Shown here one piece after another: positions 3,920 through 62,743 of a stretch of DNA of 64,000 nt. The notes below the pieces were generated by a model, which was not told where the DNA came from, ran no database searches, and saw only the letters and a list, made by a program, of their open reading frames with translations. Each line of letters begins with the position of its first letter. The stretch's first letter is position 1. The position numbers were made by a program, and so were the translations under genes. The stretch is from Candidatus Jorgensenbacteria bacterium GW2011_GWA1_48_11 (GTDB lineage: Bacteria; Patescibacteriota; Minisyncoccia; UBA6257; GWB1-50-10). Location: assembly GCA_001003475.1 (NCBI GenBank), contig LCPF01000001.1, forward strand, positions 328,549 through 392,548. The letters run 5' to 3'.

Positions 3920-4660
3920 TTATTCCGAGGTCTGTAATATCACTTCTTTTGCTCTTTGAGTAAAATGAACAATGAGGTTTTTGGAAAACTTGGATTCCTT
4001 GAGAAAGGCCATGCCGTCGGAAATGGTTGCTCCGAAAAGCAAAAGCCTGTTTAAGGCCGTAGGCCTTACCCGCGCTCGACCCTTGCGGTAATCTTCTTTA
4101 AGATCGATAAAGGTATCGAAACTGTTTGCCGCCCTCCCCAACCTGGTTAAAACTTTCAATAACGCCGGGAATTTTTCGCTCTTGCGGTATTCTTCGGGCA
4201 GAAAAGGAATGAAAACCTTCCCCATTACTTGTCCCTCGAGCCTCGTGAGAGTCGTAAATTTCGAAGATTCTTCTTCTGTTTTGATCTTCTCCGTTATATT
4301 CAAAATCCTCGATATTGAATCAAGGAAGGATTTTCTCTGAACTTCCGACAAACCGTCAACCAAATCTTTCACATTGCCCAAGGCGTTATTAAGCCTCTCG
4401 TCCTGGGAAAAACTTGATACCTCGCCGTTTAAAAAATTCATTACCCCCGATGCGAACTGCTCTCTTTCTTTTTCTTCCGGAATGGCATCAAGCCGGTCAT
4501 CGATGATCCGCACCGCACCCAAAATTGCCCGCCACTTCCCGACCGTTTCCGGAGGGAGAGCCAATCCCGTGATTTGTTCCGTAACCTCCCGAAGCGTATC
4601 CGAAGAATTCTCGTAGTGTTCTTGGGATACATCGAGTCTTGATTCGCCCATTTCTCTCAT
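3920..4660 (-). CDS. Hypothetical protein (246 aa)
   Basis: The long ORF has balanced composition. No recognisable motif. Confidence 0.55.
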   Translation of the reverse strand: MREMGESRLDVSQEHYENSSDTLREVTEQITGLALPPETVGKWRAILGAVRIIDDRLDAIPEEKEREQFASGVMNFLNGEVSSFSQDERLNNALGNVKDLVDGLSEVQRKSFLDSISRILNITEKIKTEEESSKFTTLTRLEGQVMGKVFIPFLPEEYRKSEKFPALLKVLTRLGRAANSFDTFIDLKEDYRKGRARVRPTALNRLLLFGATISDGMAFLKESKFSKNLIVHFTQRAKEVILQTSE

Positions 4661-5215: not shown

Positions 5216-5467
5216 TTATCCTTTGGCGTTACCAGTCGGGTTAGTCCCGGCGATTTGGTGGCGAGTTTGGGTTTTGGTCAAGGGCACCGGCACTTGCTCG
5301 GGCTTCGGGCCCGGTTCTTGAGCAGCTTGCGGCGCGGTGTTTTCATCCTTGAGCGAGGTGGAAAAGGGCTCAATGCTGGTTTTAGCGAGGCCGGAAGCGG
5401 CAAAAACAATGCCAATCAGGCTGATCACGCCGAAAATCAAAATAAAATTGGTTTGCAGGAAGTTCAT
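5216..5467 (-). CDS. Small membrane-anchored Pro-rich protein (about 84 aa)
   Basis: Reading from the internal Met (MNFLQTNFILIFGVISLIGIVF...) gives one TM helix followed by a P/Q-rich tail. The longer annotated ORF would run through the promoter of the divergent gene. Confidence 0.35.
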   Translation of the reverse strand: MNFLQTNFILIFGVISLIGIVFAASGLAKTSIEPFSTSLKDENTAPQAAQEPGPKPEQVPVPLTKTQTRHQIAGTNPTGNAKG

Positions 5468-5564
5468 GTGTTTCTCTATAGAATATAACGGGGGAATCGG
5501 GCAAATAGTTTCAAAATAAGCCTCGTTTTTTAAAAAGTCGGCATTTTTCTGGTATAATGTTTCA

Positions 5565-5951
5565 ATGAAAAAAGACACAAAAACCGTTATTGGCGTATTG
5601 GTTTTGATCGTAGCCGCTGTCGTAATTGTCATGGCGGTCTCGGCGAATCGGCCGCGCACCCCGGGCAAACTGGATGCTTTCGCCGCCTGCCTCAAGACGA
5701 GCGGCGTGGTCTTCTACGGCGCTTACTGGTGCTCCCACTGTCAGAATCAAAAAGCCATGTTCGGCAAATCCGAGGATTTATTGCCTTACGTCGAATGCTC
5801 CAATCCCAGCGGTACGGGCCAAACGGCGATTTGCACCCAAAAAGGAATTCAGGGCTATCCCACCTGGATCTTCAAGGACGGGAGCGAGTTGACCGGCGAA
5901 GTGCCGCTCGACCAATTGGCGCAAAAAACCGGCTGCGCCCTGCCCCAATAA
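5565..5951 (+). CDS. Thioredoxin-like membrane-anchored protein (CxxC; DsbB/VKOR-associated type)
   Basis: An N-terminal TM helix is followed by a YGAYWCSHCQNQK CxxC motif. The gene sits immediately upstream of a DsbB-like gene. A paralog lies at 40369-40731. Confidence 0.75.
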   Translation: MKKDTKTVIGVLVLIVAAVVIVMAVSANRPRTPGKLDAFAACLKTSGVVFYGAYWCSHCQNQKAMFGKSEDLLPYVECSNPSGTGQTAICTQKGIQGYPTWIFKDGSELTGEVPLDQLAQKTGCALPQ

Positions 5952-6506
5952 ATGGCGCCTTTCGTTGATTTGGCGACCAAGGTTTTTTCCGGCCTGACTC
6001 TTATCGGGGATATCGGGGTCGCAATCGTTGTTTTCGCCCTGATCTTTAAGGGTTTGGCCTGGGCCAGATTGGTGCTGGGCTTTTTGCGGAGCCAGTCCCT
6101 GTTTTTGGCTTTCGTGATCGCCTTGGGGGCGACCCTGGGCAGCCTTTTTTATTCGGAGGTGGCCGGCTTCGTGCCTTGCTCTTTGTGCTGGTGGCAGCGG
6201 CTTTTCCTTTATCCGCAGGTTCTCATTTTGGGTTTCGGCCTTTGGAAAAAAGACAGCCGGGTTTGGAATTGCGTTCTGGGCTTGTCCGTGATCGGGGCCC
6301 TCATCGCGGTTTACAACACTTACCTGCAGTTCGGCGGATTTTCTTTCTTGCCTTGTCCCCCCTCCGGCGTTTCTTGCGCCCAGCGTTATTTCCTGGAATT
6401 CGGCTACATTACCATTCCCACAATGTCCCTCACCGCCTTTCTTCTGCTCATTGTTCTGGGCTTGGCCGGCAAATCCAAAGCCGAAAAAGAACCCGGTAAT
6501 TCTTAA
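5952..6506 (+). CDS. Disulfide bond formation protein, DsbB/BdbC family
   Basis: A 4-TM protein with a CSLCWWQR motif (compare BdbC CxxCWYQR) and a second Cys pair (PCPPSGVSC). Confidence 0.7.
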   Translation: MAPFVDLATKVFSGLTLIGDIGVAIVVFALIFKGLAWARLVLGFLRSQSLFLAFVIALGATLGSLFYSEVAGFVPCSLCWWQRLFLYPQVLILGFGLWKKDSRVWNCVLGLSVIGALIAVYNTYLQFGGFSFLPCPPSGVSCAQRYFLEFGYITIPTMSLTAFLLLIVLGLAGKSKAEKEPGNS

Positions 6507-8104: not shown

Positions 8105-8314
8105 GATTTTTTAAATGCGCATCCGTTTTTGGTGATTCTGGGCGTGATCTGGACCTTGCCTTGGAAAGGCGTGGCGCTCTGGAGGGCCGCGAAACTGAAC
8201 CAGCCAAAATGGTTCGTTGCCCTTCTCATCGTGAATACCTTGGGCATCCTGGAGATCCTCTATATTTACGTCTTCAGCAAGAAGCAGGCGATCAAGAGCG
8301 GCGATTCCCAATAG
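8102..8314 (+). CDS. Small membrane protein (70 aa)
   Basis: Two TM helices. The start codon is embedded in the 3' arm of the conserved element. Confidence 0.5.
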   Translation: MDFLNAHPFLVILGVIWTLPWKGVALWRAAKLNQPKWFVALLIVNTLGILEILYIYVFSKKQAIKSGDSQ

Positions 8315-8317
8315 CCG

Positions 8318-9583
8318 ATGAAAATAAAAAACTTCGAGATTCTGGCCTCGAACGGCTTGCGGCGCAAGGCCTTGGCCGTCATTGAAGCCGGGCTGGAGGC
8401 GATCGATACGCCGACGGTGATCAAGAAAGACGTTTCGTTCGAAAAAGACGTTCTTCGGGTGAAAAACGAGTCTTTCCCGCTCAATTCCTTTGAGCGCGTT
8501 TTTTTTGTGGGGGTGGGCAAGTGCGCCTTGGAGGCCGGCGCCGCAGTCGAGGGGATTTTGGGCGAGCGGCTCTCGGACGGCATTATTTTGGACGTTCATA
8601 GGGGTGAGCTCAAAAAAATAAAAACCTTCGGCGGCACCCATCCTTTGCCGAGCATTGAGAACGAACGGGCGACGCGGGCGATTATCGGGCTTTTGGAAGG
8701 CGCGACCGGAAAAGATTTGGTTATTTTCGCGATTTCGGGCGGCGCCTCGACTCTGCTTTGCCAGCCGCAGGATTTGACCTGTGATGAGGAAGGGGAGATT
8801 TTCAGGATGCTTATGCGGCAGGGGGCGGCCATCGAGGAAATCAATACCGTGCGCAAACATTTGTCCCTGGCCCGCGGCGGCTATCTGGCCAAGCATGCTT
8901 ATCCGGCCAAGGTTCTCTCCTTGATTTTTTCCGACGTGCCGGGCGATGATTTGGAATTCGTCGCTTCCGGGCCGACCGTAAAGGACATAACCACGGTTGC
9001 AGACGCGAAAAAGGTTTTTGAAAAGTTCGGCTTGGAAAAGACGCACGGTCTCATCGAAACGCCCAAAGAAGACAAGTATTTCGAGAAAGTGAAAAATATT
9101 TTGCTTATTTCGAACAAAACAGCCTTGGAAGCGATGGCCGCAAAAGCGCGGACGTCGGGTTTCACGCCCGAAATCTGCACCGACTGCCTGCGCGGCGAAG
9201 CCAGGGAAGAAGGAGAAAAAATTATGGCCGCCCTCCATAAATCGAAACCAGGCGCGGCTCTTCTTTATGGTGGCGAGACCACGGTTACGGTGCGTGGGAA
9301 TGGGAAAGGCGGCCGCAATCAGGAACTCGCCCTTTCGGCCTTGCACTTCGTCAAGGACGGGGAGATTCTTGTTTCGATCGCTTCGGACGGCTGGGACAAC
9401 GGCGAAGCGGCCGGCGCCATTTGTGATAAAATAACGAAAGAAAAAGCCGGTAATTTGGACGTCGAGGATTATCTGGCGCGGAACGATTCCTACGCTTTTT
9501 TTGAAAAAACCGGCGCTCAAATTATGACCGGCGAAACCGGCTCCAATGTTTCGGATTTGATTATTGCAATAAAAACCCGATGA
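8318..9583 (+). CDS. Glycerate kinase, MOFRL family (glycerate 2-kinase / hydroxypyruvate reductase-like)
   Basis: A 421-aa protein with MOFRL-type motifs (GGETTVTVRGNGKGGRNQELAL). The antisense ORF 8111-9595 is rejected. Confidence 0.8.
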   Translation: MKIKNFEILASNGLRRKALAVIEAGLEAIDTPTVIKKDVSFEKDVLRVKNESFPLNSFERVFFVGVGKCALEAGAAVEGILGERLSDGIILDVHRGELKKIKTFGGTHPLPSIENERATRAIIGLLEGATGKDLVIFAISGGASTLLCQPQDLTCDEEGEIFRMLMRQGAAIEEINTVRKHLSLARGGYLAKHAYPAKVLSLIFSDVPGDDLEFVASGPTVKDITTVADAKKVFEKFGLEKTHGLIETPKEDKYFEKVKNILLISNKTALEAMAAKARTSGFTPEICTDCLRGEAREEGEKIMAALHKSKPGAALLYGGETTVTVRGNGKGGRNQELALSALHFVKDGEILVSIASDGWDNGEAAGAICDKITKEKAGNLDVEDYLARNDSYAFFEKTGAQIMTGETGSNVSDLIIAIKTR

Positions 9584-9759
9584 TTTGCATTTCAATATTA
9601 GGAGGCAACAGCCATTTTTTAAGAAAAGTGTGTCGGAGGCCGAGCGGGCATGGTGCCCGAAGGGCGAGCAAGGCCGAGGAACAAGCGGTGATTTTCTCGC
9701 TCCGAAGGAGTCCCTTTGGGACCGGGAAAATCAACCGCGTCTTTTCGTAAAGATGGCTG

Positions 9760-12186
9760 GTGCTGATTAAAACAATGAAATCAAAAAGCCGACAATTTAT
9801 TCTCTGGTTCAAGGATATCCGCTTGAAGGACGTGGCGCTCGTGGGCGGCAAAAACGCGGCTTTGGGCGAAATGTACGGCGAGCTCGTGAAATTGGGGGTG
9901 AATATCCCGAACGGTTTTGCTCTGACCGCGGCGGCTTACCGCTTTTTCCTCAAGAAAACGGGACTGGACAAAGAAATCCGGGAAATTTTGAAGGGCTTGG
10001 ATACGAAGGATTTGAAAAATCTCCAGGCGCGGGGCCAGGCCGTGCGCCAGGCGGTTCTAAGAGCCGAGTTGCCTCGGGAGCTTACGAACGAAATAAAAAA
10101 GTCCTACAAAAAGCTCGAAAAGATTTACGGTGCCGAAACGGACGTGGCCGTGCGTTCCTCGGCTACGGCCGAAGATCTGCCCGGCGCTTCTTTTGCCGGC
10201 CAGCAGGAGACTTATCTGAACGTCCGCGGCCTGGACGAGCTTTTTTTGGCCGTCAAGAAATGCATTGCTTCGCTTTTCACCGACCGGGCCATTTCTTACC
10301 GCGCGGACAAGGGTTTTGGCCAGTTGGACGTCGCGCTTTCGGTCGGCATCCAGAAAATGGTGCGTTCGGATTTGGGCGCGAGCGGCGTCACTTTCACCAT
10401 TGACACCGAATCCGGTTTTGACCAGGTCATTGTCATTGATTCGATTTACGGTTTGGGCGAATACATTGTCCAAGGCAAGGTCGTGCCCGATGAGTTCGTG
10501 GTCTGGAAGCCGGGTTTGGAAAAGGGTTTGAAGTCGATTATTGCGACCGATCTGGGGAAGAAAAACGTGAAGCTCGTTTACGGCCGGATCGGCACCAAGA
10601 TGGCGAAGGTGAGCGAAGCAAGCCAAAACAAATTTTCCCTGAAAGAAAGCGAGGTCCTCATTTTGGCCAAGTGGTCGCTCCAAATCGAAAAGCATTTTTC
10701 AAAACTTCACCGCAAATACACGCCCATGGATATCGAGTGGGCCAAGGACGGGAAAACCAAGGAACTTTTCATTGTCCAAGCCCGGCCCGAAACCGTGCAC
10801 GCCCTCGAGAGCAAAAATATTTACAAAGAGTACCGCTTGAGCGGCAAGGGCCGCGAGCTTTTATCCGGCATTGCCGTGGGCAATCGGATCGGTTCGGGCA
10901 AAGTGCGGGTCATCCTGGATGCGAAGCACATCGGCCAATTCAAAAAAGGCGAAGTGCTGGTGACGAAGATAACCGATCCCGATTGGGAACCGATAATGAA
11001 AATCGCCTCGGCGATCGTGACCGACGAGGGCGGCCGCACGTCGCATGCCGCGATCGTCTCGCGCGAGCTTGGTATTCCCTGCATCGTGGGTGCGGGGAAG
11101 GCCACCCGGGTTTTGAAAACGGGGGGGCCGGTCACCGTTGACTGTTCGGCAGGCGAGCGGGGCCGGGTTTTCTCCGGCCTAGTGCCTTTCCATGAGGTTA
11201 TCCACCGTTTGGACAAATTACCGAGGCCTAGAGCGAAAATAATGGTGAATATTGCCGCGCCGGATGAGGCTTTCAAGAACCACCATCTGCCGGTAGAGGG
11301 CGTGGGCTTGGGCCGGCTTGAGTTTATCATTGCTTCGCACATCCTGATCCATCCGAACGCCCTTTTGAATTTCAAGAAGCTTAAAAAAGGAAAGACAAAG
11401 GACGCGATCGAGAAACTGACTGCCGGTTATGCGGACAAAACCAAATATTACGTCGATGAGCTCGCCGAAGGCATCGCGAAAATCGCCGCCGCCTTTTGGC
11501 CTCACCCGGTCATCATCCGCTTTTCCGATTTCAAGACCAATGAGTATGCCACTCTTCTGGGCGGCGAAGCTTACGAGCCCAAGGAAGAAAATCCCATGCT
11601 CGGGTTTCGCGGCGCCTCGCGCTATTACGACCCGAAATTCGAAAAAGCTTTCGGCCTCGAAGTGAAGGCCATGAAAAAAGTGCGGGAGGCGATGGGGCTT
11701 ACGAACGTCATTCCGATGATCCCTTTCTGCCGCACGCCCGAAGAAGGCGAGAAGGTCATTAAGGTAATGGCCAAATATGGCTTAAAACGTAATCAGCATA
11801 AATCCGCCAAAAATCCGCATGCATCAGCGTTAAAGGTTTACGTCATGGCTGAGATTCCCTCGAATATATTGCTTGCCGACGAGTTTTTGAATATCTTTGA
11901 CGGCATGTCCATTGGTTCGAATGATCTGACCCAATTGGTTTTGGGTTTGGATCGGGACTCTGGCATCGTGACGCACATTGCGAACGAGAATAACCCGGCT
12001 GTTCGAAAAATGATTGCCGAGATTATTGCGAAATGTAAGAAGCGGAAAAAATACATCGGCATTTGCGGTCAAGCGCCGTCGGATTATCCCGATTTCGCCG
12101 CTTTTCTGGTCAAGCAAGGCATCGAAAGCATTTCCCTGAATCCCGACACGGTCATCAAGAATATCCTCGCTTTGGGCAAGCGCTAG
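9760..12186 (+). CDS. ppsA: Phosphoenolpyruvate synthase (pyruvate, water dikinase)
   Basis: An 808-aa protein with the GGKNAALGEM nucleotide-binding region, the phospho-His motif (GGRTSHAAIVSRELGIPCIVG) and a C-terminal PEP-utilising domain. Confidence 0.9.
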   Translation: MLIKTMKSKSRQFILWFKDIRLKDVALVGGKNAALGEMYGELVKLGVNIPNGFALTAAAYRFFLKKTGLDKEIREILKGLDTKDLKNLQARGQAVRQAVLRAELPRELTNEIKKSYKKLEKIYGAETDVAVRSSATAEDLPGASFAGQQETYLNVRGLDELFLAVKKCIASLFTDRAISYRADKGFGQLDVALSVGIQKMVRSDLGASGVTFTIDTESGFDQVIVIDSIYGLGEYIVQGKVVPDEFVVWKPGLEKGLKSIIATDLGKKNVKLVYGRIGTKMAKVSEASQNKFSLKESEVLILAKWSLQIEKHFSKLHRKYTPMDIEWAKDGKTKELFIVQARPETVHALESKNIYKEYRLSGKGRELLSGIAVGNRIGSGKVRVILDAKHIGQFKKGEVLVTKITDPDWEPIMKIASAIVTDEGGRTSHAAIVSRELGIPCIVGAGKATRVLKTGGPVTVDCSAGERGRVFSGLVPFHEVIHRLDKLPRPRAKIMVNIAAPDEAFKNHHLPVEGVGLGRLEFIIASHILIHPNALLNFKKLKKGKTKDAIEKLTAGYADKTKYYVDELAEGIAKIAAAFWPHPVIIRFSDFKTNEYATLLGGEAYEPKEENPMLGFRGASRYYDPKFEKAFGLEVKAMKKVREAMGLTNVIPMIPFCRTPEEGEKVIKVMAKYGLKRNQHKSAKNPHASALKVYVMAEIPSNILLADEFLNIFDGMSIGSNDLTQLVLGLDRDSGIVTHIANENNPAVRKMIAEIIAKCKKRKKYIGICGQAPSDYPDFAAFLVKQGIESISLNPDTVIKNILALGKR

Positions 12187-15621: not shown

Positions 15622-18309
15622 ATGAAAATTGAGGATTTTAGAAGCAAAATAGCTGATCTTATTCAAAAATATGAACGCGCTAAACAGTCAGGTTTAGTGA
15701 AGAAATATAGCGAAGAAGAGACAAAAAAGGATTTTATTTTGCCCCTTTTTGAGGCATTGGGTTGGGACGTTCGCGAAAAAAGAGAAGTTTCTGCTGAGGA
15801 AAAAATATCAGGAGATCGTGTTGATTATGGTTTTTATATCGACGGCCATATTAAATTCTATCTAGAAGCAAAACCATTAAGAGCAGATATACATAAGGAA
15901 GAATACGCTAAGCAAGCCATAAAATATTCTTGGAATAAGGGCGTTACTTGGGCAGTTCTTACCGACTTTGAAAGTCTTATCGTATTTAATACGCAAGACG
16001 TAAAGGCTTCTCTAGCGAGTAAGTTACTTTTTGAGATTCCATACAGTGAATATCTAGAACGATTCGACCAATTATCGCTTTTGTCTCGAGAATCTTTTAA
16101 AGAGAATTCTATCGATGATTGGGCTGAAAAAAATGGTAAAAAGTTTCAAAAAGTCCCGATTACTGCACTTCTGTATAACGATCTAAACGAATGCCGTGAA
16201 ATGCTTACAAAATCACTTGTTGCTTGGAATCCAAATCTCAAAAAAGATAGAAAACTTTTAGACGAAGGCGTCCAGAAATTATTAGATCGCCTTATTTTCT
16301 TGAGGGTAGCAGAAGATCGTGGCATTGAGCCACCTACACTTATTCCACTTTTACGTGAATGGCATTCCCGTAAGGATAAAAATGAAGTTCCATTATACGC
16401 TCATATGGTTAAAAAGTTTAGGGATTTGGACAAAACTTATAACTCTAATTTATTTTCTGAGCATCCATTTGAAAAATGGGAAGAATATGGAGATGCCACA
16501 GAAGAAGTCATTAAAATTTTATATGGTAAACCCGGTTATTATGAATATGATTTTAAAGTTATGCCTGCCGATATTTTGGGTACGGTCTATGAAAATTACC
16601 TCGGCTATAAGCTTTCTCAATCGAAAAAAGGAATTGATGTTCATAAAGATGCGAAGAAGCGCAAAGAACAAGGTATTTATTACACGCCTCATTTTATTGT
16701 TGAGTATATTGTTAAGAATGCACTTGGTCCTGTTTTAGATAGATGTGAAACAATTGAGGATCTAAAAAAAGTTAAGGTTCTGGATCCTGCTTGTGGTTCT
16801 GGTTCTTTTCTTGTTCAGGCACTTGAACTTATTAATGAAAAATATAAGCGGATGGGCGCGCCCGGCAACATTTTTACAAAAACCCAAATTCTTCTCCTAA
16901 ATATTTTTGGCGTTGATTTGGATGAACAAGCGGTTGAAATTGCTCGTCTTAATCTTTTAGTAAGCGCTTTAGATGGTAAAAATCCTTTACCCAAACTTGA
17001 TCAGAATATTAAATGTGGTAATTCTCTTATTTATGGTACTGATGCCGAATTAAAAAAGTATTTTGGTACGACCTTTAAGGATCAAAAACCCTTCAATTGG
17101 GAAGAAGAATTTCCCGATGTATTTGAGAAGGGTGGTTTTACCGTAGTAATTGGGAATCCGCCGTGGGGAGCGAGCATAGATAAGTTTAATAAGAGCTTTT
17201 ATAAAGATTTCTTTGTTTCTGGTAAGGGAATAATAGATACATTCGCATTATTTATAGAGAGATCACTTGGTCTTTTGAAAGAAGAGGGATATTTGGGTTT
17301 TATTCTCCCCGATATCGTTTTGTTGAAAAATTATCCTCAGATAAGAAAATTTATTTTGGATAATTGTCTTATTAAAAATCTTTATTATACAGGTATGGCG
17401 TTCCATGGTGTCAATTTAGATTCTGTGATTGCAATTTTAAAGAAGGAAAAATCAGAGGGAAAAAGGAATGAAAATTATATAGAAATTATTATGGACAGTA
17501 GGGAGAAAAGAATTAAACAACAACTATTTTTAAATAATTCTGATTATAAATTTAATTTATATTTCGATGACTACATCATTAAACTGAAAAATAAAGTAGA
17601 TAGTCAATCAATTAAGTTGGGGGGTTTGTTAGAAATTCATGAAGGAATACACTCTGGAAATATTAGGGATAAATTATTTTTGGATTCGCGATTGTCTAAT
17701 AAGTGCCAAAAACTTTTATTTAAAGGTGTTGAGGTAGAACGATATTTTGAAAAATGGGGAGGAAAATTCGTGAATTATGATAAAAGCATTATCAATAAAA
17801 CGGCAGGTAATTATGCAAACCTAGGTAAAGAAGAATATTTTTTAAGCAAAAAGATATTAGTTAGAAGAACCGGTGATAGGATTATTGCTACGATTGATAA
17901 CGATAAGTATTTCGTGAGTAATAATTTTTTTGTTTTGTATTATAAGAAATCTTTAAAAGAAGAAATTGATTTAAAATGTATTCTAGCGATTCTAAATTCC
18001 AAACTAGGAACATGGTATTTTACTGCAATTCAACCTCGTAAAGGGAAGTTATTTGCTGAAATTAAAATTAATCATTTAGCAGAGATCCCTATTTCTAAAA
18101 AGCGAGAATTCGATAAGATTTTTGTACTAGTTGATCAAATGTCTGAATCGCAGAAGAAATTTCATATCACTAAAGAGAATTCAAACGACTGGGAACGATT
18201 AGAATCCGAAATTGAAAAAACCGACAAGAAAATAGACGAAGAGATATATAAGCTTTACCGCCTTACGCCGGAGGAGATTAAAATAGTAGAAACAACAATA
18301 AAGGATTAA
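15622..18309 (+). CDS. Type IIG (MmeI-like) restriction-modification enzyme: N-terminal nuclease fused to a gamma-class N6-adenine methyltransferase and TRD
   Basis: HsdR-N/Mrr-like N-terminus (EEETKKDFILPLFEALGWDV), MTase motif I (VLDPACGSGSFLV) and motif IV (GNPPWG). 895 aa. Located in a ~33% GC island. Confidence 0.75.
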   Translation: MKIEDFRSKIADLIQKYERAKQSGLVKKYSEEETKKDFILPLFEALGWDVREKREVSAEEKISGDRVDYGFYIDGHIKFYLEAKPLRADIHKEEYAKQAIKYSWNKGVTWAVLTDFESLIVFNTQDVKASLASKLLFEIPYSEYLERFDQLSLLSRESFKENSIDDWAEKNGKKFQKVPITALLYNDLNECREMLTKSLVAWNPNLKKDRKLLDEGVQKLLDRLIFLRVAEDRGIEPPTLIPLLREWHSRKDKNEVPLYAHMVKKFRDLDKTYNSNLFSEHPFEKWEEYGDATEEVIKILYGKPGYYEYDFKVMPADILGTVYENYLGYKLSQSKKGIDVHKDAKKRKEQGIYYTPHFIVEYIVKNALGPVLDRCETIEDLKKVKVLDPACGSGSFLVQALELINEKYKRMGAPGNIFTKTQILLLNIFGVDLDEQAVEIARLNLLVSALDGKNPLPKLDQNIKCGNSLIYGTDAELKKYFGTTFKDQKPFNWEEEFPDVFEKGGFTVVIGNPPWGASIDKFNKSFYKDFFVSGKGIIDTFALFIERSLGLLKEEGYLGFILPDIVLLKNYPQIRKFILDNCLIKNLYYTGMAFHGVNLDSVIAILKKEKSEGKRNENYIEIIMDSREKRIKQQLFLNNSDYKFNLYFDDYIIKLKNKVDSQSIKLGGLLEIHEGIHSGNIRDKLFLDSRLSNKCQKLLFKGVEVERYFEKWGGKFVNYDKSIINKTAGNYANLGKEEYFLSKKILVRRTGDRIIATIDNDKYFVSNNFFVLYYKKSLKEEIDLKCILAILNSKLGTWYFTAIQPRKGKLFAEIKINHLAEIPISKKREFDKIFVLVDQMSESQKKFHITKENSNDWERLESEIEKTDKKIDEEIYKLYRLTPEEIKIVETTIKD

Positions 18310-32607: not shown

Positions 32608-33621
32608 ATGCGGGGGATGAAAATCGCTTTTTTTGAGCTTGAAGGCTGGGAAGAAAAGATCATCCGAGCCAATTTTCCGAACGAAGAACTCTCATTTTTC
32701 GATGGGCATTTCGACGACCTGACGCCGCCGCCGAAAAACGAGTTCGACGTCGTCTCTATTTTCGTCGATTCCAAGATCACGCCCAAAACCCTGGCTCGGT
32801 TCCCGAACTTGAAATTTTTAACCACCCGTTCGACGGGTTATGACCATATTGATCTGAAAGCCCTGAAAAAAAGGAACGTTCAGGCGGCTTACGTGCCGGG
32901 CTACGGCGACAACACCGTGGCCGAGTTCGCCTTCGGCCTGATCCTGAACTTGACCCGCAAGATCTATCTGGCGATCGATCAGGTCAAGGAAATCGAATCA
33001 TTCGATTTGAAAAATCTGCGGGGCATGGATTTGAAGAATAAGACGATCGGCGTCGTCGGCACCGGCCGCATCGGCAAAGAGGTGATCAGGATCGCGAAGG
33101 GGTTCGGCCTGAACGTGCTGGCCTACGATCCTTTCCCGAAGAACGACTTGGCGAAGCTCATTGGTTACGAATATGTGAGCCTTACGGATTTGCTCAAGAA
33201 TTCGGACATCGTGACCATTCACTGTCCTTACAACAGGAAAACCCGCCACCTGCTGAATAAAAAGAACATTAAGTTCGTGAAACGCGGCGCCTATCTCGTG
33301 AATACCGCTCGGGGCGGCATTGTCGAAACCGAGGCTCTGGTTTTGGCACTGAACGAGGGGATTTTGGCCGGCGCGGCCTTGGACGTGCTTGAGGAAGAGG
33401 GCGAAACCAAGGACGAAATGAAATTTTTGAGCGCGATCGGCGGGCACGGCGAGAATCTCCGGACCATCCTCGAAAACCACATTTTGATGAAAATGCCGAA
33501 CGTTTTGATCACGCCCCACAACGCTTTCAATTCCCAGGAAGCGCTGGAGCGGATTCTGAATACGACGATCCAGAATATCAAAAGCTTCCTCGCCGGCCGG
33601 CCGGAAAACCTCGTGCCTTAA
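32608..33621 (+). CDS. D-isomer-specific 2-hydroxyacid dehydrogenase (NAD-dependent)
   Basis: GxGxxG motif (VVGTGRIGKEV) and a catalytic R/E/H region. Confidence 0.85.
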   Translation: MRGMKIAFFELEGWEEKIIRANFPNEELSFFDGHFDDLTPPPKNEFDVVSIFVDSKITPKTLARFPNLKFLTTRSTGYDHIDLKALKKRNVQAAYVPGYGDNTVAEFAFGLILNLTRKIYLAIDQVKEIESFDLKNLRGMDLKNKTIGVVGTGRIGKEVIRIAKGFGLNVLAYDPFPKNDLAKLIGYEYVSLTDLLKNSDIVTIHCPYNRKTRHLLNKKNIKFVKRGAYLVNTARGGIVETEALVLALNEGILAGAALDVLEEEGETKDEMKFLSAIGGHGENLRTILENHILMKMPNVLITPHNAFNSQEALERILNTTIQNIKSFLAGRPENLVP

Positions 33622-33691
33622 ATGAATTCAGAAACAAGGAATTGTCAGAATTGCCAGCCCAAGGCTGGTCCGCCTCGGGCGGACAAACATC

Positions 33692-35398
33692 ATGGCTGAA
33701 TCACAAACTAAAGTTTGTCAGAATTGTCATGGTTCATTCGTCATTGAACCGGAGGATTTCCAGTTTTACGAAAAAATCCAGGTCCCGCCGCCCACCTGGT
33801 GCCCGGAGTGTCGTAATCAGAGGCGCTTGGCTTTCCGAAACGAGCGTAGTTTGCACAAAAGAAAATGCGATTTTTCTGGAGAAAATATGATTTCGTTGTA
33901 TCCACCGAATACCCCATTCCCCGTTTATCAACAAAAATATTGGTGGAGCGACAAGTGGGACCCCCTTTCGTATGGAAAGGAAATAAATTGGAATGAGCCG
34001 TTTTTGAAACAGATACAAGAATTAAGAAACAGAACCCCGCGCATGAACCTAATCGGTTTGCATCAAACACTTGAGAATAGCGAATACGTGAATATGGCTC
34101 ATAATTTGAAGAATTGCTATCTTATTTTCAACTCCGACTATAACGAGAATTGTTTATATGGTTCTGAAATAGAAAGTTCCAAGGATTGCATTGATAACCT
34201 GATGATCGATTCTTGTACGCTCTGTTACGAATGCATTAATTGCAACAAGTGTTATAAAACTTTTTTCTCCGAGGACTGTAATGAATGCAACGACGTCTAT
34301 TTCTCAAAAGATTGCATCGGGTGCAATAATTGTTTCGGTTGCGTCAATCTCCGGAAAAAAAGCCATCACATTTTTAACAAACCTTATACGAGGGAAGAAT
34401 ATGAAGCAAGAATTAAGGAGTATAACCTGTCGTCTCGAGCGTCGCTTAGGGGTTGGCAAAAGAAAACCCAAGATTTTTGGGAAACCAAGGGAAAATATAA
34501 ACACTTTCACGGTTTACAAAACGATGACGTTTCCGGCGACTATATTAATAATTCAAAGAACATTCACAATTGCTTCATTGTTCGGGGGTCGAAGAATTGT
34601 AAATACTGCATGTGGTTGATTGTTGGAAACAATGAAGATTGTTACGACTATGCCCAATTTGGTCAGAATACAGAACTCATGTACGAAGTGATGCAAGCCG
34701 GATACCAAACCTCCAATGTGAAGTTTAGTTATCTTGTTGCCGCGATGAGCTCAAGTATCGAATACTCCGACTCTGTTTATGGTTCTTCCAACTGTTTCGG
34801 TTGCAGCAATCTGAGAGATAAGGAGTACTGCATTCTGAACAAGCAATATTCTAAAGAAGAATATAACGAATTTATTCCGAAGATTAAAAAGCATATGAAC
34901 GAAAAACCCTATGTTGATAAAAAGGGCAGGGTTTATAAATACGGCGAATTTTTCCCCATCGAGTTAAGTGTAATTCCGTACAATCAATCATCGGCTCAAG
35001 ATTTTTATCCTCTTTCCGAAAAAGACGCCGAAGAAAAAGGGTATTCTTGGAGCGAGATAAAGCTAACCGAGCACGAAATTTCACTATCGTTTGATAAGAT
35101 CCCGGATACAATCGATAAAACCGACGACACCATTATTAAAGAAGTAATTGCTTGTCGTGAATCGGGCAAAGCTTTTCGGATAGTTCCCGATGAACTCAGA
35201 TTGCATCGAGTTTTTAATCTGCCTCTTCCTGATTGTTTGCCAGAAGTGCGCCAAAAGAGAAGAATAGGGAGGCGGAACAAGCCCGTTCTTTACAATCGTG
35301 CCTGTGCCAAGTGCGGCAAGGGGATTCAAACTTCCTACGCTTCCGAGAGGCCGGAGGTAGTGTACTGTGAGCAGTGTTACAACGCCGAAGTGGTATGA
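33692..35398 (+). CDS. Cys-rich repeat protein with duplicated N- and C-terminal zinc-ribbon modules (568 aa)
   Basis: The N-terminus (CQNCHGSF...PPPTWCPECRNQRRLAFRNERSLHKRKCDFSG) is mirrored at the C-terminus (CRESGKAF...LPDCLPEVRQKRRIGRRNKPVLYNRACAKCG). The central region carries 11-12-residue repeats with regularly spaced Cys. Confidence 0.6.
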   Translation: MAESQTKVCQNCHGSFVIEPEDFQFYEKIQVPPPTWCPECRNQRRLAFRNERSLHKRKCDFSGENMISLYPPNTPFPVYQQKYWWSDKWDPLSYGKEINWNEPFLKQIQELRNRTPRMNLIGLHQTLENSEYVNMAHNLKNCYLIFNSDYNENCLYGSEIESSKDCIDNLMIDSCTLCYECINCNKCYKTFFSEDCNECNDVYFSKDCIGCNNCFGCVNLRKKSHHIFNKPYTREEYEARIKEYNLSSRASLRGWQKKTQDFWETKGKYKHFHGLQNDDVSGDYINNSKNIHNCFIVRGSKNCKYCMWLIVGNNEDCYDYAQFGQNTELMYEVMQAGYQTSNVKFSYLVAAMSSSIEYSDSVYGSSNCFGCSNLRDKEYCILNKQYSKEEYNEFIPKIKKHMNEKPYVDKKGRVYKYGEFFPIELSVIPYNQSSAQDFYPLSEKDAEEKGYSWSEIKLTEHEISLSFDKIPDTIDKTDDTIIKEVIACRESGKAFRIVPDELRLHRVFNLPLPDCLPEVRQKRRIGRRNKPVLYNRACAKCGKGIQTSYASERPEVVYCEQCYNAEVV

Positions 35399-45816: not shown

Positions 45817-47259
45817 ATGAACTTTCTAAAGCGAAAATGGTTTATTGTTGCCGGCCTGGTTCTGATCGTCGTTCTGGGCGGTTATTTTTTGTTCAGCGGT
45901 AAAGACAAATCGGCGTTCCAGACCGTGACCGTGGTCCGGGGCGATGTTTCCGAGGAGGTTTCGGTGACCGGCCAGGTCGAACCGATCAAAAGCGTCGATT
46001 TGGCTTTCGAGCAGTCGGGCCGGATCGCCGGCGTTTACGCCGAAGTCGGGGACAAGGTTTATGCGGGCGAGGCCTTGGTGACCCTGGATAAATCCGCTCT
46101 CGCGGCCCAACTGGCCAAGGCCGAGGCGGACTTGGCCACCCAAGAGGCCGATTTGAACAAAGATAACGTCGATCTGGCGAATTACTACGGCGTCATCCCG
46201 AATCTCTTGAACGACGCTTATGCCAAGGCCGATGACGCAACGAGAAAACAACTGGACGGACTTTTCAATAACGACGAATCGCGGAACCCGACGTTGACTT
46301 TCGTGGTCGCGGATATCGCCGTCGATAACGACGTGAGGGGTTTAAGACTTAATGCGACGGGTATTTTAAACCAGTGGGCCGGCGAGCTCAAGGGAATCAG
46401 TGGCGTTTCCGTGCCGGCGGATTTGCGGGTCGAGCTCGACAAGGCCGAAGGTTATTTGCTGACCATCCGTTCCCTGCTTTCGCGATCAATGGATGCGGTC
46501 GTGGGCGCGGCCAGCGGCGGATCATTGAGTTCTTCCACCGCCGACGCTTATAAAGCGAACATCAATACGGCCCGGACCAATGTCAATGCGGCCCTGTCCG
46601 ATCTGACGGCCCAATCCCAGTCCATCGCCGCCCAGGAAGCGACGATCGCCTCGGTTCGGGCCGGCGTCAAATCTTACGAAGCCAGCATTGATAATATCAA
46701 GGCCCAGATGGCGAAGATGACGATTCATTCTCCCATAAACGGCGTGGTCACCGTCGAGAATGCCAAGGTCGGCGAAATCGCGGCGGCCAATACCGCGATG
46801 GTTTCGGTGATTTCCGGGAGTAAGTTCGAAGTGGAAGCGAACGTGGCCGAAGCCGACATTGCCAAAGTGAAAGTCGGCGATTCCGCCCAGATCACCCTCG
46901 ACGCTTACGGCAACGACGTAATTTTTGACGCCGCGGTTTCTTCGATCGATCCCGGCGAAACAATGATCGAGGGCGTCGCCACCTACAGAACGAAATTTCA
47001 ATTCGTCAAATCGGACGACCGGGTAAAATCCGGCATGACGGCCAATATCGATATTTTCACGAATAAAAAAGAAAACGTTTTGGTCATTCCCCAGCGGGCG
47101 GTCACGACCAAGAACGGCATCAGAAGCGTGACAGTGGATTTAGGCAAGGGTTTTTCCGAAGAAAGGCAGATCGAGATAGGCCTCAGGGGCGCGGACGGCA
47201 GCGTGGAAGTGCTCGGGGGCCTCCAGGAAGGCGATAAAGTCATTGTCAACAATTCCTGA
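45817..47259 (+). CDS. Efflux transporter periplasmic adaptor / membrane-fusion protein (HlyD/MacA-like)
   Basis: An N-terminal TM helix, long coiled-coil region and a beta-barrel C-terminus. Confidence 0.8.
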   Translation: MNFLKRKWFIVAGLVLIVVLGGYFLFSGKDKSAFQTVTVVRGDVSEEVSVTGQVEPIKSVDLAFEQSGRIAGVYAEVGDKVYAGEALVTLDKSALAAQLAKAEADLATQEADLNKDNVDLANYYGVIPNLLNDAYAKADDATRKQLDGLFNNDESRNPTLTFVVADIAVDNDVRGLRLNATGILNQWAGELKGISGVSVPADLRVELDKAEGYLLTIRSLLSRSMDAVVGAASGGSLSSSTADAYKANINTARTNVNAALSDLTAQSQSIAAQEATIASVRAGVKSYEASIDNIKAQMAKMTIHSPINGVVTVENAKVGEIAAANTAMVSVISGSKFEVEANVAEADIAKVKVGDSAQITLDAYGNDVIFDAAVSSIDPGETMIEGVATYRTKFQFVKSDDRVKSGMTANIDIFTNKKENVLVIPQRAVTTKNGIRSVTVDLGKGFSEERQIEIGLRGADGSVEVLGGLQEGDKVIVNNS

Positions 47260-59601: not shown

Positions 59602-59738
59602 TCCCTCACCCTTCAAAGATAAGAAGCTTAATCGATAAACCGATTTATGAACTCATTAGAAAACAATATTAGTCTAAAAAGGTCTTTATTGATCAAAGAT
59701 TACTTCCTTAGAAGTGTAATCTTTGAAGGGTGAGGGAT
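59601..59738. repeat. 138-bp MITE-like element with perfect 20-bp terminal inverted repeats, lying exactly between the uvrA stop and the uvrC ATG
   Basis: ATCCCTCACCCTTCAAAGAT at 59601-59620 is the reverse complement of 59719-59738. The right terminus supplies GAAGGGTGAGGG and then the ATG of uvrC. Confidence 0.55.
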
Positions 59739-61098
59739 GGAAAAGCTTTATAAAAATTTGCCTGAGACGCCCGGCGTTTATCTGATGAAAGACGCCGCCG
59801 GCCGGATTTTATACGTCGGCAAGGCCGTCAATCTGCGGCGGCGGGTGGCGAGTTATTTCACGTTTACCCGCCGAAGCGAAGGCGAAGGAGGGCGGTCCCC
59901 CGCCGTCGCTTACGCTTTGGCGGGCAAGCATGATTTGCGCTTGGAAAAATTGGTCCGGGAGATAAAAAAAATAGATCTTAAGAAAACCGATACGGCTTTG
60001 GAAGCATTGATTCTGGAGTCGGCGCTCATAAAAAAACACCAGCCGCCCTGGAATATCCGGGAAAAGGACGATACGAGTTTCCTCTATGTCGGCATCACTG
60101 ATGATTATTTCCCGAGAGTAATTTTGGTACGAGGTAAGGTTATAAAAGGGAAGGCGCTTGCCCCGTCACTAACCGAGCGCTACCAAAATCGCTTCGCGCG
60201 GAAGCGCGAAGAGCGCGGTGCTCGGTTTAGTGCGGGGTTCGGGCCGTATACTTCAGCTTCGGATATCCGGGAGGCCCTAAGGATCATCCGCCGGATTTTT
60301 CCCTTTAGTACTCATTCGGCCGAAGCCATCGGTAAATTTAAAAGACCTTGCTTTGACTATCAGTTGGGTTTGTGCCCGGGTACTTGTATCGGCATCATTG
60401 ACCGTGGGGATTATCTCAAGAACATCAAAAACATAATTTTGCTTTTCCAGGGTAAAAAAAAGGAAATTTTGAAAAATCTTCAGTCGGCCATGAAATCGGC
60501 TAGCAAAAAGCTGGAATTCGAAAAAGCCGGGAAAATCCGCCGTCAGATCTTCGCCTTGCAGCATATTCAGGATACTGCGCTCATCACGGATGGGCGAATT
60601 CAAAATTTAAAATTTAAAATTCAAAATTCCTTCCGGATTGAAGGGTATGACATATCGAATATTTCGGGGCTCTCGGCCGTGGGGAGCATGGTGGTTTTTT
60701 CCGCCCAAGGCGGACCAGCCTCGGGCAGGATATTAAAGCCGGACAAAAACCAATATCGGAAATTCAAAATCGGCACGGTTTTTGGCTCTAATGACACGGC
60801 TATGCTTGCGGAAATGCTGGGTCGCCGGTTGAACCACCGCGAATGGCCCTTGCCGGATCTGTTCCTGATCGACGGCGGCAAGCCCCAAGTGAACGCCGTT
60901 CGCTCGGTTTTGGACGAATTTGGATTGCAACTGCCCGTCGTGGGCATTGCGAAGGGCGCAAAGAGGAAGAAAAACGAATTTATCGGTCCGGTGCCGAAAG
61001 AAATCGGTGAAAAAACCCTGATTCAGGTTCGGGATGAAGCTCATCGTTTCGCCGTGAGTTATCACAAAAAATTAAGAAGTTATAGCTCTCTGTTATAA
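59737..61098 (+). CDS. uvrC: Excinuclease ABC subunit C, short form (453 aa: GIY-YIG, UVR and RNase H-like endonuclease domains, no C-terminal (HhH)2), with an in-frame palindromic-element insertion
   Basis: GIY-YIG motif (GVYLMKD...YVGKA), UVR motif (FEKAGKIRRQIFALQ), endonuclease motifs (IEGYDISN, LIDGGK). Confidence 0.8.
   Translation: MEKLYKNLPETPGVYLMKDAAGRILYVGKAVNLRRRVASYFTFTRRSEGEGGRSPAVAYALAGKHDLRLEKLVREIKKIDLKKTDTALEALILESALIKKHQPPWNIREKDDTSFLYVGITDDYFPRVILVRGKVIKGKALAPSLTERYQNRFARKREERGARFSAGFGPYTSASDIREALRIIRRIFPFSTHSAEAIGKFKRPCFDYQLGLCPGTCIGIIDRGDYLKNIKNIILLFQGKKKEILKNLQSAMKSASKKLEFEKAGKIRRQIFALQHIQDTALITDGRIQNLKFKIQNSFRIEGYDISNISGLSAVGSMVVFSAQGGPASGRILKPDKNQYRKFKIGTVFGSNDTAMLAEMLGRRLNHREWPLPDLFLIDGGKPQVNAVRSVLDEFGLQLPVVGIAKGAKRKKNEFIGPVPKEIGEKTLIQVRDEAHRFAVSYHKKLRSYSSLL
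60161..60237. repeat. GC-clamped palindromic element, copy 3, inserted in-frame within uvrC
   Basis: CCCCGTCACTAACCGAGCG...CGCTCGGTTTAGTGCGGGG. It is translated as APSLTERYQNRFARKREERGARFSAGF with no stop. Confidence 0.55.
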
Positions 61099-61105
61099 TT
61101 AGGAA

Positions 61106-62743
61106 ATGCTTGCAGGCGAAATTAAGAAGTTTTTCAGCGGCGACGTTTCAAACGACGAGAAAACCCTAAATCTTTACAGCGAGGACTATTCAATTTTTAA
61201 GGTCAGGCCCGAGGTCGTGGTTTTTCCCAAAAACGCCGAAGATTTGAAAAAACTTGTCAAATTCGCCGCAGAGAAAGCCAAAACCGGAGAAAAAGTATCC
61301 CTGACCGGCCGGGCGGCCGGCACGGACATGAGCGGCGGTCCTTTGAACGATTCGATCATCGTTTCTTTCACCAAATATTTCAACCATATCAGGGAAATCG
61401 GCAAGGATTACGCCGTGGTCGAGCCGGGCGTTTATTTTCGGGATTTTGAAAAAGAACTCGCGAAGCGGGAGTTGCTCTACCCGCCTTATCCGGCCTCGAA
61501 AGACTTGTGCGCTTTAGGCGGCATGATCAATAATAATTCCGGCGGCGAAAAAACCCTCTTCTACGGCAAAACCGAAGATTATGTGGAGGGTATTGATATT
61601 GTTTTGGCCGACGGCGAAGAGCATCGTTTCGAGCCTCTCGAAGGCGAAGAACTACGGGCCAAGCTCAGGAAAAAAAGTTTTGAAGGCGACATTTACCGCC
61701 AACTTTACAAGCTCATCGAAGACAATTACGAAATGATCCAAAAGGCCAAGCCGGGGGTTTCCAAGAACTCGGCTGGCTATTATTTATGGAACGTTTGGGA
61801 CAGGAAAACCTTTGATATCACGAAGTTGCTCGTGGGCTCCCAGGGTACGCTGGGGCTTTTAACCGCGGCCCGTCTGAAGCTTGTGCCGGCAAAGAGATAT
61901 TCGAGGCTCGTCGTGGTTTTTAGCAAAAGCCTTGCGCCAATTCCAGATTTGGTCAGGGATTTGCTAAAAATGGATCCGGAAAGCATCGAATCTTATGACG
62001 ATAAGACTTTCGGTTTGGCACTGAGATTTTTCCCGGCCATGTTGAAGCTGATGAAAGGAGATGTTTTTAAATTGGCTTTCAGGTTCCTGCCGGAGCTTTG
62101 GATGTTCATCCGCGGCGGCAATCCCAAGATGGTGCTTTTAATATCGCTCACGGCGGACAACGAAAAGGATTTGGAGGAAAAAGCCGCCGCCGCCACAGTC
62201 GTCGCCAAAAAATACCCGGTTCTGGCGCGGAACGTTAAAAACGATGCCGAAGCCCAGGAATATTGGACGATCCGGCGGCAGAGTTTCAACCTTCTCCACA
62301 GTCACGTCAAGGGCCTTTACGCCGCGGCTTTCATAGACGACATTATCGTGGACCCGAAATACATGCCCGAGTTTTTGCCGCAAGTGAACGCGATTCTGGA
62401 TAAATACAAAAAACAGCTGATTTACACCATTGCCGGCCATCCGGGCAACGGCAATTTCCACATCATCCCGCTCGTGAAGCTCAGCGATCCGGAGACGAGA
62501 AGGATTATTCCGATCGTGACCGAAGAGATCTACCAATTGGTTTTCAAATATCACGGCTCGATTACGGCTGAACACAACGACGGCCTGATTCGGACGCCTT
62601 ATTTGGCGGAAATGTACGGCGATAAGATCGTCGCTTTATTCGAAAAGGTCAAGAATATTTTCGATCCCCTGAATATCATGAATCCCGGAAAAAAGGTTTT
62701 TGCCGGCCTGAATTATTCCCTGGATCACATCAAAAACGCCTGA
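61106..62743 (+). CDS. FAD-linked oxidase (PCMH-type FAD-binding; GlcD/D-lactate dehydrogenase-like)
   Basis: N-terminal FAD-binding domain (GRAAGTDMSGG) and a C-terminal oxidase domain. 545 aa. Confidence 0.8.
   Translation: MLAGEIKKFFSGDVSNDEKTLNLYSEDYSIFKVRPEVVVFPKNAEDLKKLVKFAAEKAKTGEKVSLTGRAAGTDMSGGPLNDSIIVSFTKYFNHIREIGKDYAVVEPGVYFRDFEKELAKRELLYPPYPASKDLCALGGMINNNSGGEKTLFYGKTEDYVEGIDIVLADGEEHRFEPLEGEELRAKLRKKSFEGDIYRQLYKLIEDNYEMIQKAKPGVSKNSAGYYLWNVWDRKTFDITKLLVGSQGTLGLLTAARLKLVPAKRYSRLVVVFSKSLAPIPDLVRDLLKMDPESIESYDDKTFGLALRFFPAMLKLMKGDVFKLAFRFLPELWMFIRGGNPKMVLLISLTADNEKDLEEKAAAATVVAKKYPVLARNVKNDAEAQEYWTIRRQSFNLLHSHVKGLYAAAFIDDIIVDPKYMPEFLPQVNAILDKYKKQLIYTIAGHPGNGNFHIIPLVKLSDPETRRIIPIVTEEIYQLVFKYHGSITAEHNDGLIRTPYLAEMYGDKIVALFEKVKNIFDPLNIMNPGKKVFAGLNYSLDHIKNA

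Follow-up and report, generated by a model that had tools for sequence, protein, structure and literature searches.

Three kinds of described arrangement lie close to the one reported here. Rickettsia palindromic elements are short hairpins that are dispersed and tolerated in frame within conserved genes. In translationally coupled genes, including those preceded by leader open reading frames (ORFs), stop and start codons overlap, as in ATGA or ATGnnTGA. Finally, bypass elements, such as gene 60 of phage T4 and 'byp' of yeast mitochondria, have matching codons on both sides of a gap that contains a hairpin and derives from a mobile GC-rich palindrome; the gap of T4 gene 60 is said to be about 50 nt long. 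Here we describe a gene in a 64,000-nt stretch of Candidatus Jorgensenbacteria bacterium GW2011_GWA1_48_11 (contig LCPF01000001.1; the whole stretch is referred to as the window), which encodes a Cys-rich protein of 568 amino acids (aa) and is preceded by a 25-codon upstream ORF (uORF), hereafter the stub, and by a pair of hairpins. This leader shares features with in-frame palindromic insertions, coupled uORFs and bypass elements, yet it differs from each of them because it is not in frame, copies the N-terminus of its host gene and is followed by an ORF that always has a start of its own. The reading we favour, and regard as moderately probable, is that we are dealing with a zinc-finger solenoid gene of the Patescibacteria whose displaced original N-terminus persists as a stub, cut off by a spreading cassette.

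The leader and the gene are arranged as listed below, where codes such as L132 denote loci, i.e. stretches fetched from other assemblies.

33622..33699, + strand: stub uORF, 25 codons, MNSETRNCQNCQPKAGPPRADKHHG followed by a stop; the first 11 codons would be the displaced original N-terminus, and the rest is read through the hairpin cassette
33643..33654, + strand: first CQNC codon block, TGTCAGAATTGC; left direct repeat and left boundary of the putative cassette, the point at which the identity between the L132 cassettes starts
33655..33667, + strand: hairpin 1, CAGCC-CAA-GGCTG; compensatory changes in 3 of 5 pairs over eight loci
33668..33684, + strand: hairpin 2, GTCCGCC-TCG-GGCGGAC, with a purine-rich 3' arm; compensatory changes in 4 of 7 pairs
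33685..33691, + strand: AAACATC, the A-rich tail leading from hairpin 2 to the start codon of the main ORF
33692..35398, + strand: main ORF, 568 aa, a member of a Patescibacteria family
33716..33727, + strand: second CQNC codon block, TGTCAGAATTGT; right direct repeat, coding for the first zinc knuckle of the mature protein

The stub is in a different frame from the main ORF (+1), and its TGA overlaps codons 2-3 of the latter (ATGGCTGA). The dodecamer TTGTCAGAATTG is present in exactly two copies in the window, at 33642 and 33715, where 0.01 would be expected by chance. The original prediction, made from the letters of the window, had noticed that the mini-ORF copies the N-terminus of the main ORF, and this was borne out, as were the length of 25 codons, the duplication of the dodecamer and the position of its first copy. 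The uORF coordinates given at that stage (33627-33704) were 5 nt too high, and the second dodecamer had been placed at 33713.

Homologs of the protein were collected by searching 5.8 billion proteins, together with an exhaustive scan of the 50%-identity representatives, and from a collection of species-representative genomes, in which 600 matches were listed and 80 loci fetched. In L001, an independent assembly encoding a 99% identical protein, the same out-of-frame uORF is found; the stem of hairpin 2 is intact, and the sequence 5' of the first CQNC is very different from that of the window, so that a boundary of identity lies at this point. In the genome-collection loci, which covered 139 family genes and were searched with a pattern demanding only an upstream C-x-N-C motif and no ATG, seven genes carried a stub. 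These stubs read M-x-x-E-T-[KR]-x-C-Q-N-C and lie 70-175 nt 5' of the gene's own ATG and CQNC, and their host proteins have a mutual identity of only 39-46%. Scanning metagenomes with the stub pattern produced 122 matches, made up of 71 ordinary family N-termini, 12 sequences cut by a contig end and 39 short ORFs, the majority of which were a stub followed by a family gene. Among viral contigs the pattern picked up only one unrelated phage sequence, repeated 8 times. The distinct stub arrangements numbered 34, with the offset between the two CQNC blocks falling in frame 1 in 15 of them, in frame 2 in 13 and in frame 0 in 6.

The arrangements have a common layout: behind the stub come a pair of hairpins that covary and a tail rich in A, and a new ATG then opens a stretch of about seven codons up to the second CQNC. 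All 34 arrangements with a complete family gene have an in-frame ATG and 4-9 sense codons ahead of the second CQNC. The spacer always consists of the two hairpins and then the A-rich tail of 7-9 nt, a length that is kept in all minimal-type cassettes, while longer spacers retain the bases of the hairpins and extend their tips. Covariation was measured in eight loci of the minimal type: 94.8% of the positions were paired and 7 of the 12 pairs showed compensatory changes, as compared to about 40% paired positions in slid controls. A covariance model built from the leader hairpins (R1), which was used to scan the window and the loci, scored the leader of the window at 54 bits (E = 6e-11). Rfam 15, on the other hand, gave only noise for the leaders of the window and L076, the best hits being small nucleolar RNA and small RNA models far under their gathering scores.

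The pattern that points most directly to an insertion was seen in L132, where a single 12-kb contig contains four copies of R1, each ahead of a different paralog of the family. The four cassettes are essentially identical from the first CQNC through the hairpins, the tail, the ATG and seven codons (MNKETKV) to the second CQNC, whereas the stubs before them differ (MNTSETWN, MEKTETRN, MNSETKT and MKSAQKT), as do the gene bodies behind them. In L151 and in L132_c/L200 a first stub with its cassette is followed by another stub with another cassette before the gene begins, and a second class of cassette sits a few codons further in, after CQNCxxxFxIEPE (L038, L114 and L132_c). When GAGGATCCACGAT and related motifs were searched for with mismatches tolerated, the motif of the long-type spacer appeared at the starts of family genes only, the remainder being noise.

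The hairpin pair also occurs away from the starts of family genes, and one such copy lies in the window itself.

60687..60728, - strand: second two-hairpin copy, within a uvrC-like ORF (59737..61098, + strand); 26 of 30 nt identical to the leader

This copy is in frame and encodes SAQGGPASG, nine residues that are absent from the 61% identical UvrC ortholog in L033. Near-identical pairs were also located away from family gene starts in unrelated genomes (L054, L050 and L058). At L031 (approximately 8227-8270) and L168 (approximately 9572-9610, - strand) a different protein opens with codons of the element (MSA[QK]GGSASGGK) and continues with sequence unrelated to it, which we read as an in-frame insertion right behind the start codon in two different genomes. 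As judged from this distribution, the hairpin pair is a dispersed palindromic element, which in the family appears to travel as a CQNC-bounded cassette with a replacement start. It resembles the Rickettsia elements in being a short, dispersed hairpin, here GC-rich, that is tolerated in frame in a conserved gene (uvrC). However, its core measures no more than about 30 nt, at the family starts it does not keep the frame but brings a replacement start and N-terminal codons, and the cassette is bounded by a 12-nt repeat of host coding sequence. In-frame hairpin insertions into housekeeping genes such as uvrC affect both gene calling and alignments.

Elsewhere in the same UvrC, compared to the L033 ortholog, about 13 extra residues were observed around RRSEGEGGRSPAVAYA (approximately residues 42-64) and about 19 in two blocks within IKGKALAPSLTERYQ...FSAG (approximately residues 134-171). 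These stretches may be further small insertions in this housekeeping gene.

According to the reading we favour, the first 11 codons of the stub (M-N-S-E-T-R-N-C-Q-N-C) would be the original start of the gene, split off by a 73-nt cassette. The cassette, lying between the two CQNC copies, would comprise the 30-nt hairpin pair, the A-rich tail, a new ATG and eight replacement N-terminal codons. Such cassettes would spread among paralogs by gene conversion or recombination at the conserved dodecamer coding for CQNC, and the hairpin element would also enter other genes without shifting their frame. A ribosome that translates the stub would unwind the hairpins on its way and then start again at the main ATG, so that the operon would remain one continuous chain of coupled ORFs. 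If this is true, the leader would exemplify a small palindromic insertion at the very start of a gene without inactivation.

The stop of the uORF overlaps the main ATG in 15 of the 34 arrangements and lies at most 20 nt upstream in eight more, a stop/start geometry that is typical of termination-reinitiation. In the window, the position of the uORF stop over the main ATG suggests translational coupling, and the operon as a whole is built alike. The TAA of an upstream dehydrogenase-like ORF (33619-33621) is immediately followed by the ATG of the stub, and the stop of the main ORF overlaps the ATG of an enolase gene at 35395 (ATGA). Four successive ORFs (dehydrogenase-like, stub, zinc-finger protein and enolase) therefore abut or overlap, through TAA followed by ATG, ATGGCTGA and ATGA. 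A site scan revealed no promoter-like or terminator-like site between them, and because of this and of the stop/start contacts the stretch reads as a chain of abutting ORFs. The leader still departs from coupled leader ORFs and attenuators in copying the N-terminus of the very protein it would regulate and in having no terminator/anti-terminator pair; hairpin 2 is followed by the A-rich tail and not by a T-run, and the terminator scan detected no intrinsic terminator at this position.

In the sequence upstream of the long ORFs of the window (for example 3920..4660, - strand; 15622..18309, 32608..33621, 45817..47259 and 61106..62743, all + strand), motifs resembling Shine-Dalgarno (SD) are present for few genes, and for several a TATAAT-like box lies 7-12 nt ahead of the ATG. 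These boxes so close to the ATG suggest leaderless or very-short-leader mRNAs in this organism. The idea of coupling fits such a genome, given the scarcity of SD-like sequences, the TATAAT-like boxes near the ATG and the abutting ORFs. Sequestration of an SD motif in hairpin 2 was also considered; the purine-rich arms would fit, but since few genes in the window are SD-like and several have TATAAT, it was kept as a possibility only.

The features of the leader might also be explained without a spreading insertion. The stub and the hairpins could be an old, selected regulatory leader, in which the nascent peptide mimics the N-terminus of the family and the main ORF is governed by how this peptide is translated or stalls. 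Conservation of the stub peptide (M-x-x-E-T-[KR]-x-CQNC) indeed far exceeds that of the host proteins with their 39-46% identity, the differences between stubs are mostly at third codon positions, in 23 of the 34 loci the stub ends on the main ATG or abuts it, both hairpins covary, and the stubs that were found without demanding an ATG are all intact. A leader of this kind, however, gives no account of an identity that begins and ends precisely at the CQNC blocks while the stubs before one and the same cassette vary, nor of serial cassettes at one gene start, nor of the same hairpin pair inside unrelated coding genes. The stub is moreover present in only about 5% of the family genes in the genome-collection loci, and the codon-like substitutions could simply come down from functional N-termini. 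We consider such a regulatory leader possible but somewhat unlikely. The four identical cassettes in L132 and the cassettes in series also speak against the stub being a relic of a deleted upstream tandem paralog, of which only the first codons remain, as neither would be expected from independent deletions. Tight tandem arrays are frequent in the family and internal deletions and pseudogenes are many (L134, L157, L168 and L131), which would suit a deletion, but its end-points would have to fall on the same codon, just past CQNC, in dozens of loci, and the relic would always have to precede the same kind of hairpin pair. This explanation appears very unlikely.

Two further alternatives concern the relation between the two frames. 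In a programmed bypass, ribosomes that begin at the ATG of the stub would leave the mRNA at the first CQNC, pass over the hairpins and the second start, and resume at the second CQNC, yielding a single protein with the N-terminus of the stub and the junction peptide MNSETRNCQNCHGSF (MNSETRNCQNC-HGSF), whereas a start at the main ORF gives MAESQTKV. The would-be take-off and landing sites do have matching codon blocks (TGYCARAAYTGY), a stable hairpin directly follows the take-off site, and the stub N-termini are nearer to the family consensus than the second N-termini. But as an in-frame ATG with 4-9 sense codons precedes the second CQNC in every arrangement, a complete protein can be made with no bypass at all. 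There is no stop codon right behind the take-off codon, the gaps measure 70-280 nt and are thus longer than the one reported for T4 gene 60, and re-initiation is what the clustering of uORF stops on the main ATG would fit. On these grounds a bypass seems highly improbable. The other alternative is a sequencing or assembly frameshift that split one longer ORF, which the original prediction had named as something that would refute it. A uORF shifted by +1 and running over the main ATG would agree with this, but the same arrangement recurs in the independent assembly L001, and a merged ORF would have two N-termini and two CQNC knuckles, a structure seen in no aligned homolog. As the layout occurs in 34 distinct loci with all three frame offsets, the artefact is ruled out and we give it hardly any credence. 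For the annotation of these genomes it follows that short ORFs copying the N-terminus of the next gene are to be treated as stubs and not as frameshift errors.

The gene behind the favoured reading belongs to a family of considerable size. The protein search returned more than 7,853 matches, of which the best 120 were all full length, 45-61% identical and labelled hypothetical or unnamed. Among the 50%-identity representatives 3,863 clusters matched, 1,551 with E < 1e-30, and the lengths were nearly all 550-610 aa. In the species-representative collection, a relative was encoded by 592 of the 600 pattern matches listed; the labels of the 80 fetched loci were Patescibacteria, its candidate phyla or plain 'bacterium' in 79 cases and Gammaproteobacteria in one. 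The protein is a member of a very large, uncharacterised and real gene family that is nearly confined to the Patescibacteria, and with upwards of 7,800 matches it cannot be regarded as an oddity of the window. The statement that no known family was recognised needs a similar qualification: it holds for the curated libraries that were tried (Pfam, NCBIfam, PADLOC and PDB sequences) but not in the sense of an orphan, as thousands of unnamed homologs exist. Pfam gave sub-threshold scores only, for PF23477 (zf_Tbcl_2; 15.8 bits against a cut-off of 27, residues 534-565) and for LIM (PF00412; 14.1 bits against 22.9, with only model positions 29-56 of 58 aligned), while NCBIfam, PADLOC and PDB sequences yielded nothing significant for the 568-aa protein; the anti-phage defence models of PADLOC-DB did not match the family protein either. 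As anticipated, the homology searches did not place it in any well-characterised Cys-rich family, and we found no literature report describing the zinc-finger family or the palindromic insertions.

The domains of the protein are as follows, with zinc fingers abbreviated ZnF. Conservation figures refer to an alignment of 264 homologs, and the structure was modelled with AlphaFold2 using 120 homologs.

33704..33865, + strand: ZnF1, residues 5-58; zf_Tbcl-like, with C9, C12, C37 and C40 and an Arg-rich helix (R41/R44/R45)
33866..33955, + strand: ZnF2, residues 59-88; degenerate, C59 alone being kept and family positions 62/80/83 being S/Q/Y
34055..34387, + strand: beta-solenoid half A, residues 122-232; a Cys ladder on some eight coils of 12 residues each
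34391..34489, + strand: helical hairpin, residues 234-266, located between the solenoid halves in the AlphaFold2 model
34493..34849, + strand: beta-solenoid half B, residues 268-386, homologous to half A
34853..35011, + strand: helix 388-404 and the conserved stretch PYVDxxGxxYxYGEFFPxExSxxxYNxxxAQ, seen in the alignment
35141..35386, + strand: C-module, residues 484-565; ZnF3 degenerate with R520/R524 kept, ZnF4 with C538, C541, C559 and C562

The overall order is Z-S-S'-linker-Z'. In the family consensus, the N-module consists of ZnF1 (CQNC...CPxCR followed by an Arg-rich helix) and ZnF2 (CxxC...CxxCWW), and the C-module repeats these as ZnF3 and ZnF4. A duplication of about 80 aa at the two ends had been spotted earlier and was clearly confirmed by profile-profile comparison (residues 5-86 against 484-565, P = 99.7%, E = 3.4e-26), except that the modules are direct copies and not the mirror images they had been called. 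What had escaped attention is that the centre of the protein is itself a duplication, residues 122-244 matching 274-398 with E = 1.1e-27 (hhalign). The central Cys repeats, also recognised at the outset, have a period of 12 residues with CxxC sub-spacing (Cys 142, 154, 166, 175/178/181/184/187, 196/199 and 208/211/214/217), and this is matched by the strand spacing of the model, in which the strands of half A recur every 12 residues (188-191, 200-203, 212-215 and 224-227). The model is confident, with a predicted local distance difference test score (pLDDT) of 90.9 and a predicted template modelling score (pTM) of 0.92, apart from the middle of half B (approximately residues 310-360), which is variable and of lower confidence. 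Folded alone, the central domain gave a poorer model (pLDDT 78, another strand pattern), and the full-length model was relied on.

ZnF1 and ZnF4, the outer fingers, have Cys residues with a conservation of 93% or more, whereas the ligands of the inner fingers are kept in only 58% (ZnF2) and 72% (ZnF3) of the homologs. ZnF2 and ZnF3 are lost jointly (odds ratio 10.8, p = 7e-16, with no correction for phylogeny), and in the protein of the window both inner fingers are without zinc ligands and the outer ones intact. R41/R44/R45 and R520/R524 are conserved at 93-100% even where the adjacent Cys are gone (93-98% for R41/R44/R45). Within the solenoid, half A terminates in C211-x2-C214-x2-C217 (nt 34322-34342), and this motif, C371 and C380 are 91-96% conserved, while the other ladder Cys exchange with Ser, Val and Leu. 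The C211-x2-C214-x2-C217 motif itself is 91-95% conserved and has neither a following CP nor a match to the Fer4 hidden Markov model.

Among described zinc fingers, the 'probable treble clef' models zf_Tbcl (PF13451) and zf_Tbcl_2 (PF23477) share the two CxxC knuckles of ZnF1/ZnF3 and ZnF4. Their four ligands are present as C9/C12/C37/C40 and C538/C541/C559/C562, but the gathering threshold is not reached, and the models, Pfam entries without a function, span only about 35-40 of the 568 residues. Among 20 relatives, PF13451 matched 6 and PF23477 matched 7 (E <= 0.01). The second LIM finger of CRP1/CRP2 aligned to the C-terminal C-x2-C...C-x2-C-Y when the family profile was compared to PDB (E = 0.0013), although this similarity is marginal and covers half a domain, the family protein having neither the His and Asp ligands nor the tandem-finger spacing of LIM. 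With the short-coil beta-solenoids (beetle antifreeze protein, hexapeptide and pentapeptide repeats and the right-handed beta-helix) the central part shares stacked short coils and a regular inward ladder, and its 12-residue Cys period matches the repeat reported for the Tenebrio antifreeze protein. But its period is 12 and not 18, 20 or about 22, and none of these folds was matched by Foldseek at E < 0.01 or with a template modelling (TM) score above 0.2. For the left-handed hexapeptide helix the best E-value was 0.014 with TM below 0.1, and there was no match to the Hexapep models of Pfam; for the pentapeptide-repeat and right-handed parallel beta-helices, with coils of 20 or about 22 residues, no significant superposition was obtained (E >= 0.02). 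Foldseek with the full model against PDB and BFVD (in the latter, one finger was matched by small phage proteins annotated 'zinc-ribbon domain', with a root-mean-square deviation of 0.6 over 41-44 residues) returned nothing below E = 0.001 and, apart from the isolated zinc finger, only generic beta-helices with TM < 0.2. The domain-only model gave non-specific hits in the same program (E >= 0.02, TM <= 0.19). The protein is cytoplasmic, and since it has no signal peptide a solenoid core filled with disulfides is unlikely.

The window carries only one copy of the family, as judged by tblastn, whereas most of the 80 loci contain tandem arrays of diverged paralogs (30-50% identity), with up to 8 copies in 14 kb (L006). 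Tiny Patescibacteria genomes often hold 2-8 or more copies of this protein of about 570 aa. Some family genes have internal deletions, truncations or decay (L131, L134, L157 and L168), which is consistent with a rapid turnover of the family; in one such copy, of 76 aa, the N-terminus is joined directly to the last finger, and in another, of 215 aa, a stub runs straight into the final part of solenoid half B. All ORFs flanking family genes were clustered, and the single recurrent neighbour from outside the family was a P-loop ATPase of about 500 aa matching TrwB_AAD_bind, TraG-D_C, T4SS-DNA_transf and DUF87, i.e. resembling type IV coupling proteins (T4CP). In 24 of 41 cases this ATPase directly adjoins a family gene. 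ATPases of this type also match the mad8 and HerA models of PADLOC. The example that was inspected by eye has no N-terminal hydrophobic stretch, unlike canonical coupling proteins, which have membrane anchors. By its matches to TrwB_AAD_bind, TraG-D_C and T4SS-DNA_transf, the neighbour corresponds to the orphan VirD4-type T4CP homologs of Patescibacteria; a 2025 survey, in which the zinc-finger family is not mentioned, counted 5,713 VirD4-type coupling-protein homologs in these bacteria (PMC12102498). The role of these orphan ATPases is an open question (PMC12102498), and no publication, curated family or solved structure explains the zinc-finger proteins. Given the confident model without a structural relative and the linkage to these ATPases, we rank the family among the larger unexplained ones of the radiation.

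With low confidence, we propose that the protein binds nucleic acid or a partner protein, or serves as an adaptor for either, in a zinc-dependent manner and together with soluble VirD4/TrwB-like ATPases. Contacts with the nucleic acid or the partner would be made by the two invariant Arg-rich zinc fingers, one at either end of a rigid solenoid, the variable face of half B would set the specificity of each paralog, and the frequent T4CP-like neighbour would serve as a motor. A bolder version of the whole would be that the leader represents a new kind of small mobile cassette, homing to the CQNC dodecamer of a multi-copy gene family, sparing its target by means of the start codon and N-terminal codons it brings along, and leaving the old N-terminus as a coupled uORF, and that the orphan VirD4-like ATPases, thousands in number, have in this family the partner or adaptor they were missing. 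This we put forward tentatively, and rather doubt that it will hold in full.

Several observations weigh against the picture drawn here. Regarding the leader, the uORF stop lies more than 20 nt before the main ATG in 10 of the 34 loci, and hairpin 1 no longer pairs in L001 and thus is not strictly required. The metagenome stubs were gathered with a pattern that demands an intact stub, so their intactness is no sign of selection, and no transposase or other mobility mechanism was identified for the cassette. Regarding the protein, the ATPase is absent within 6 kb in 54 of the 80 genome-collection loci, and no gene for such an ATPase is present in the window. C211-x2-C214-x2-C217 could be an Fe-S site, with a redox or enzymatic role for the protein instead. 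Moreover, spread by gene conversion is proposed from the identity boundaries, coupling by re-initiation from comparative data, and the function of the protein from sequence features and neighbourhood.

Some other genes were observed near the family. The closest relative outside this species, at 61% identity, is found in L002, which has three copies, and this three-gene array is flanked on both sides by genes for TrmB-family regulators (5420-6208 and 11381-12127, both - strand); TrmB-like genes recur in 6 of the 80 loci. A pair of genes was seen near family arrays and T4CP-like ATPases in six loci (upstream parts of L039, L048/L038, L063 and L071). One member encodes a protein with Sigma70_r4 and HARE-HTH, and the other a protein of about 450 aa that has an N-terminal hydrophobic segment and no Pfam match.

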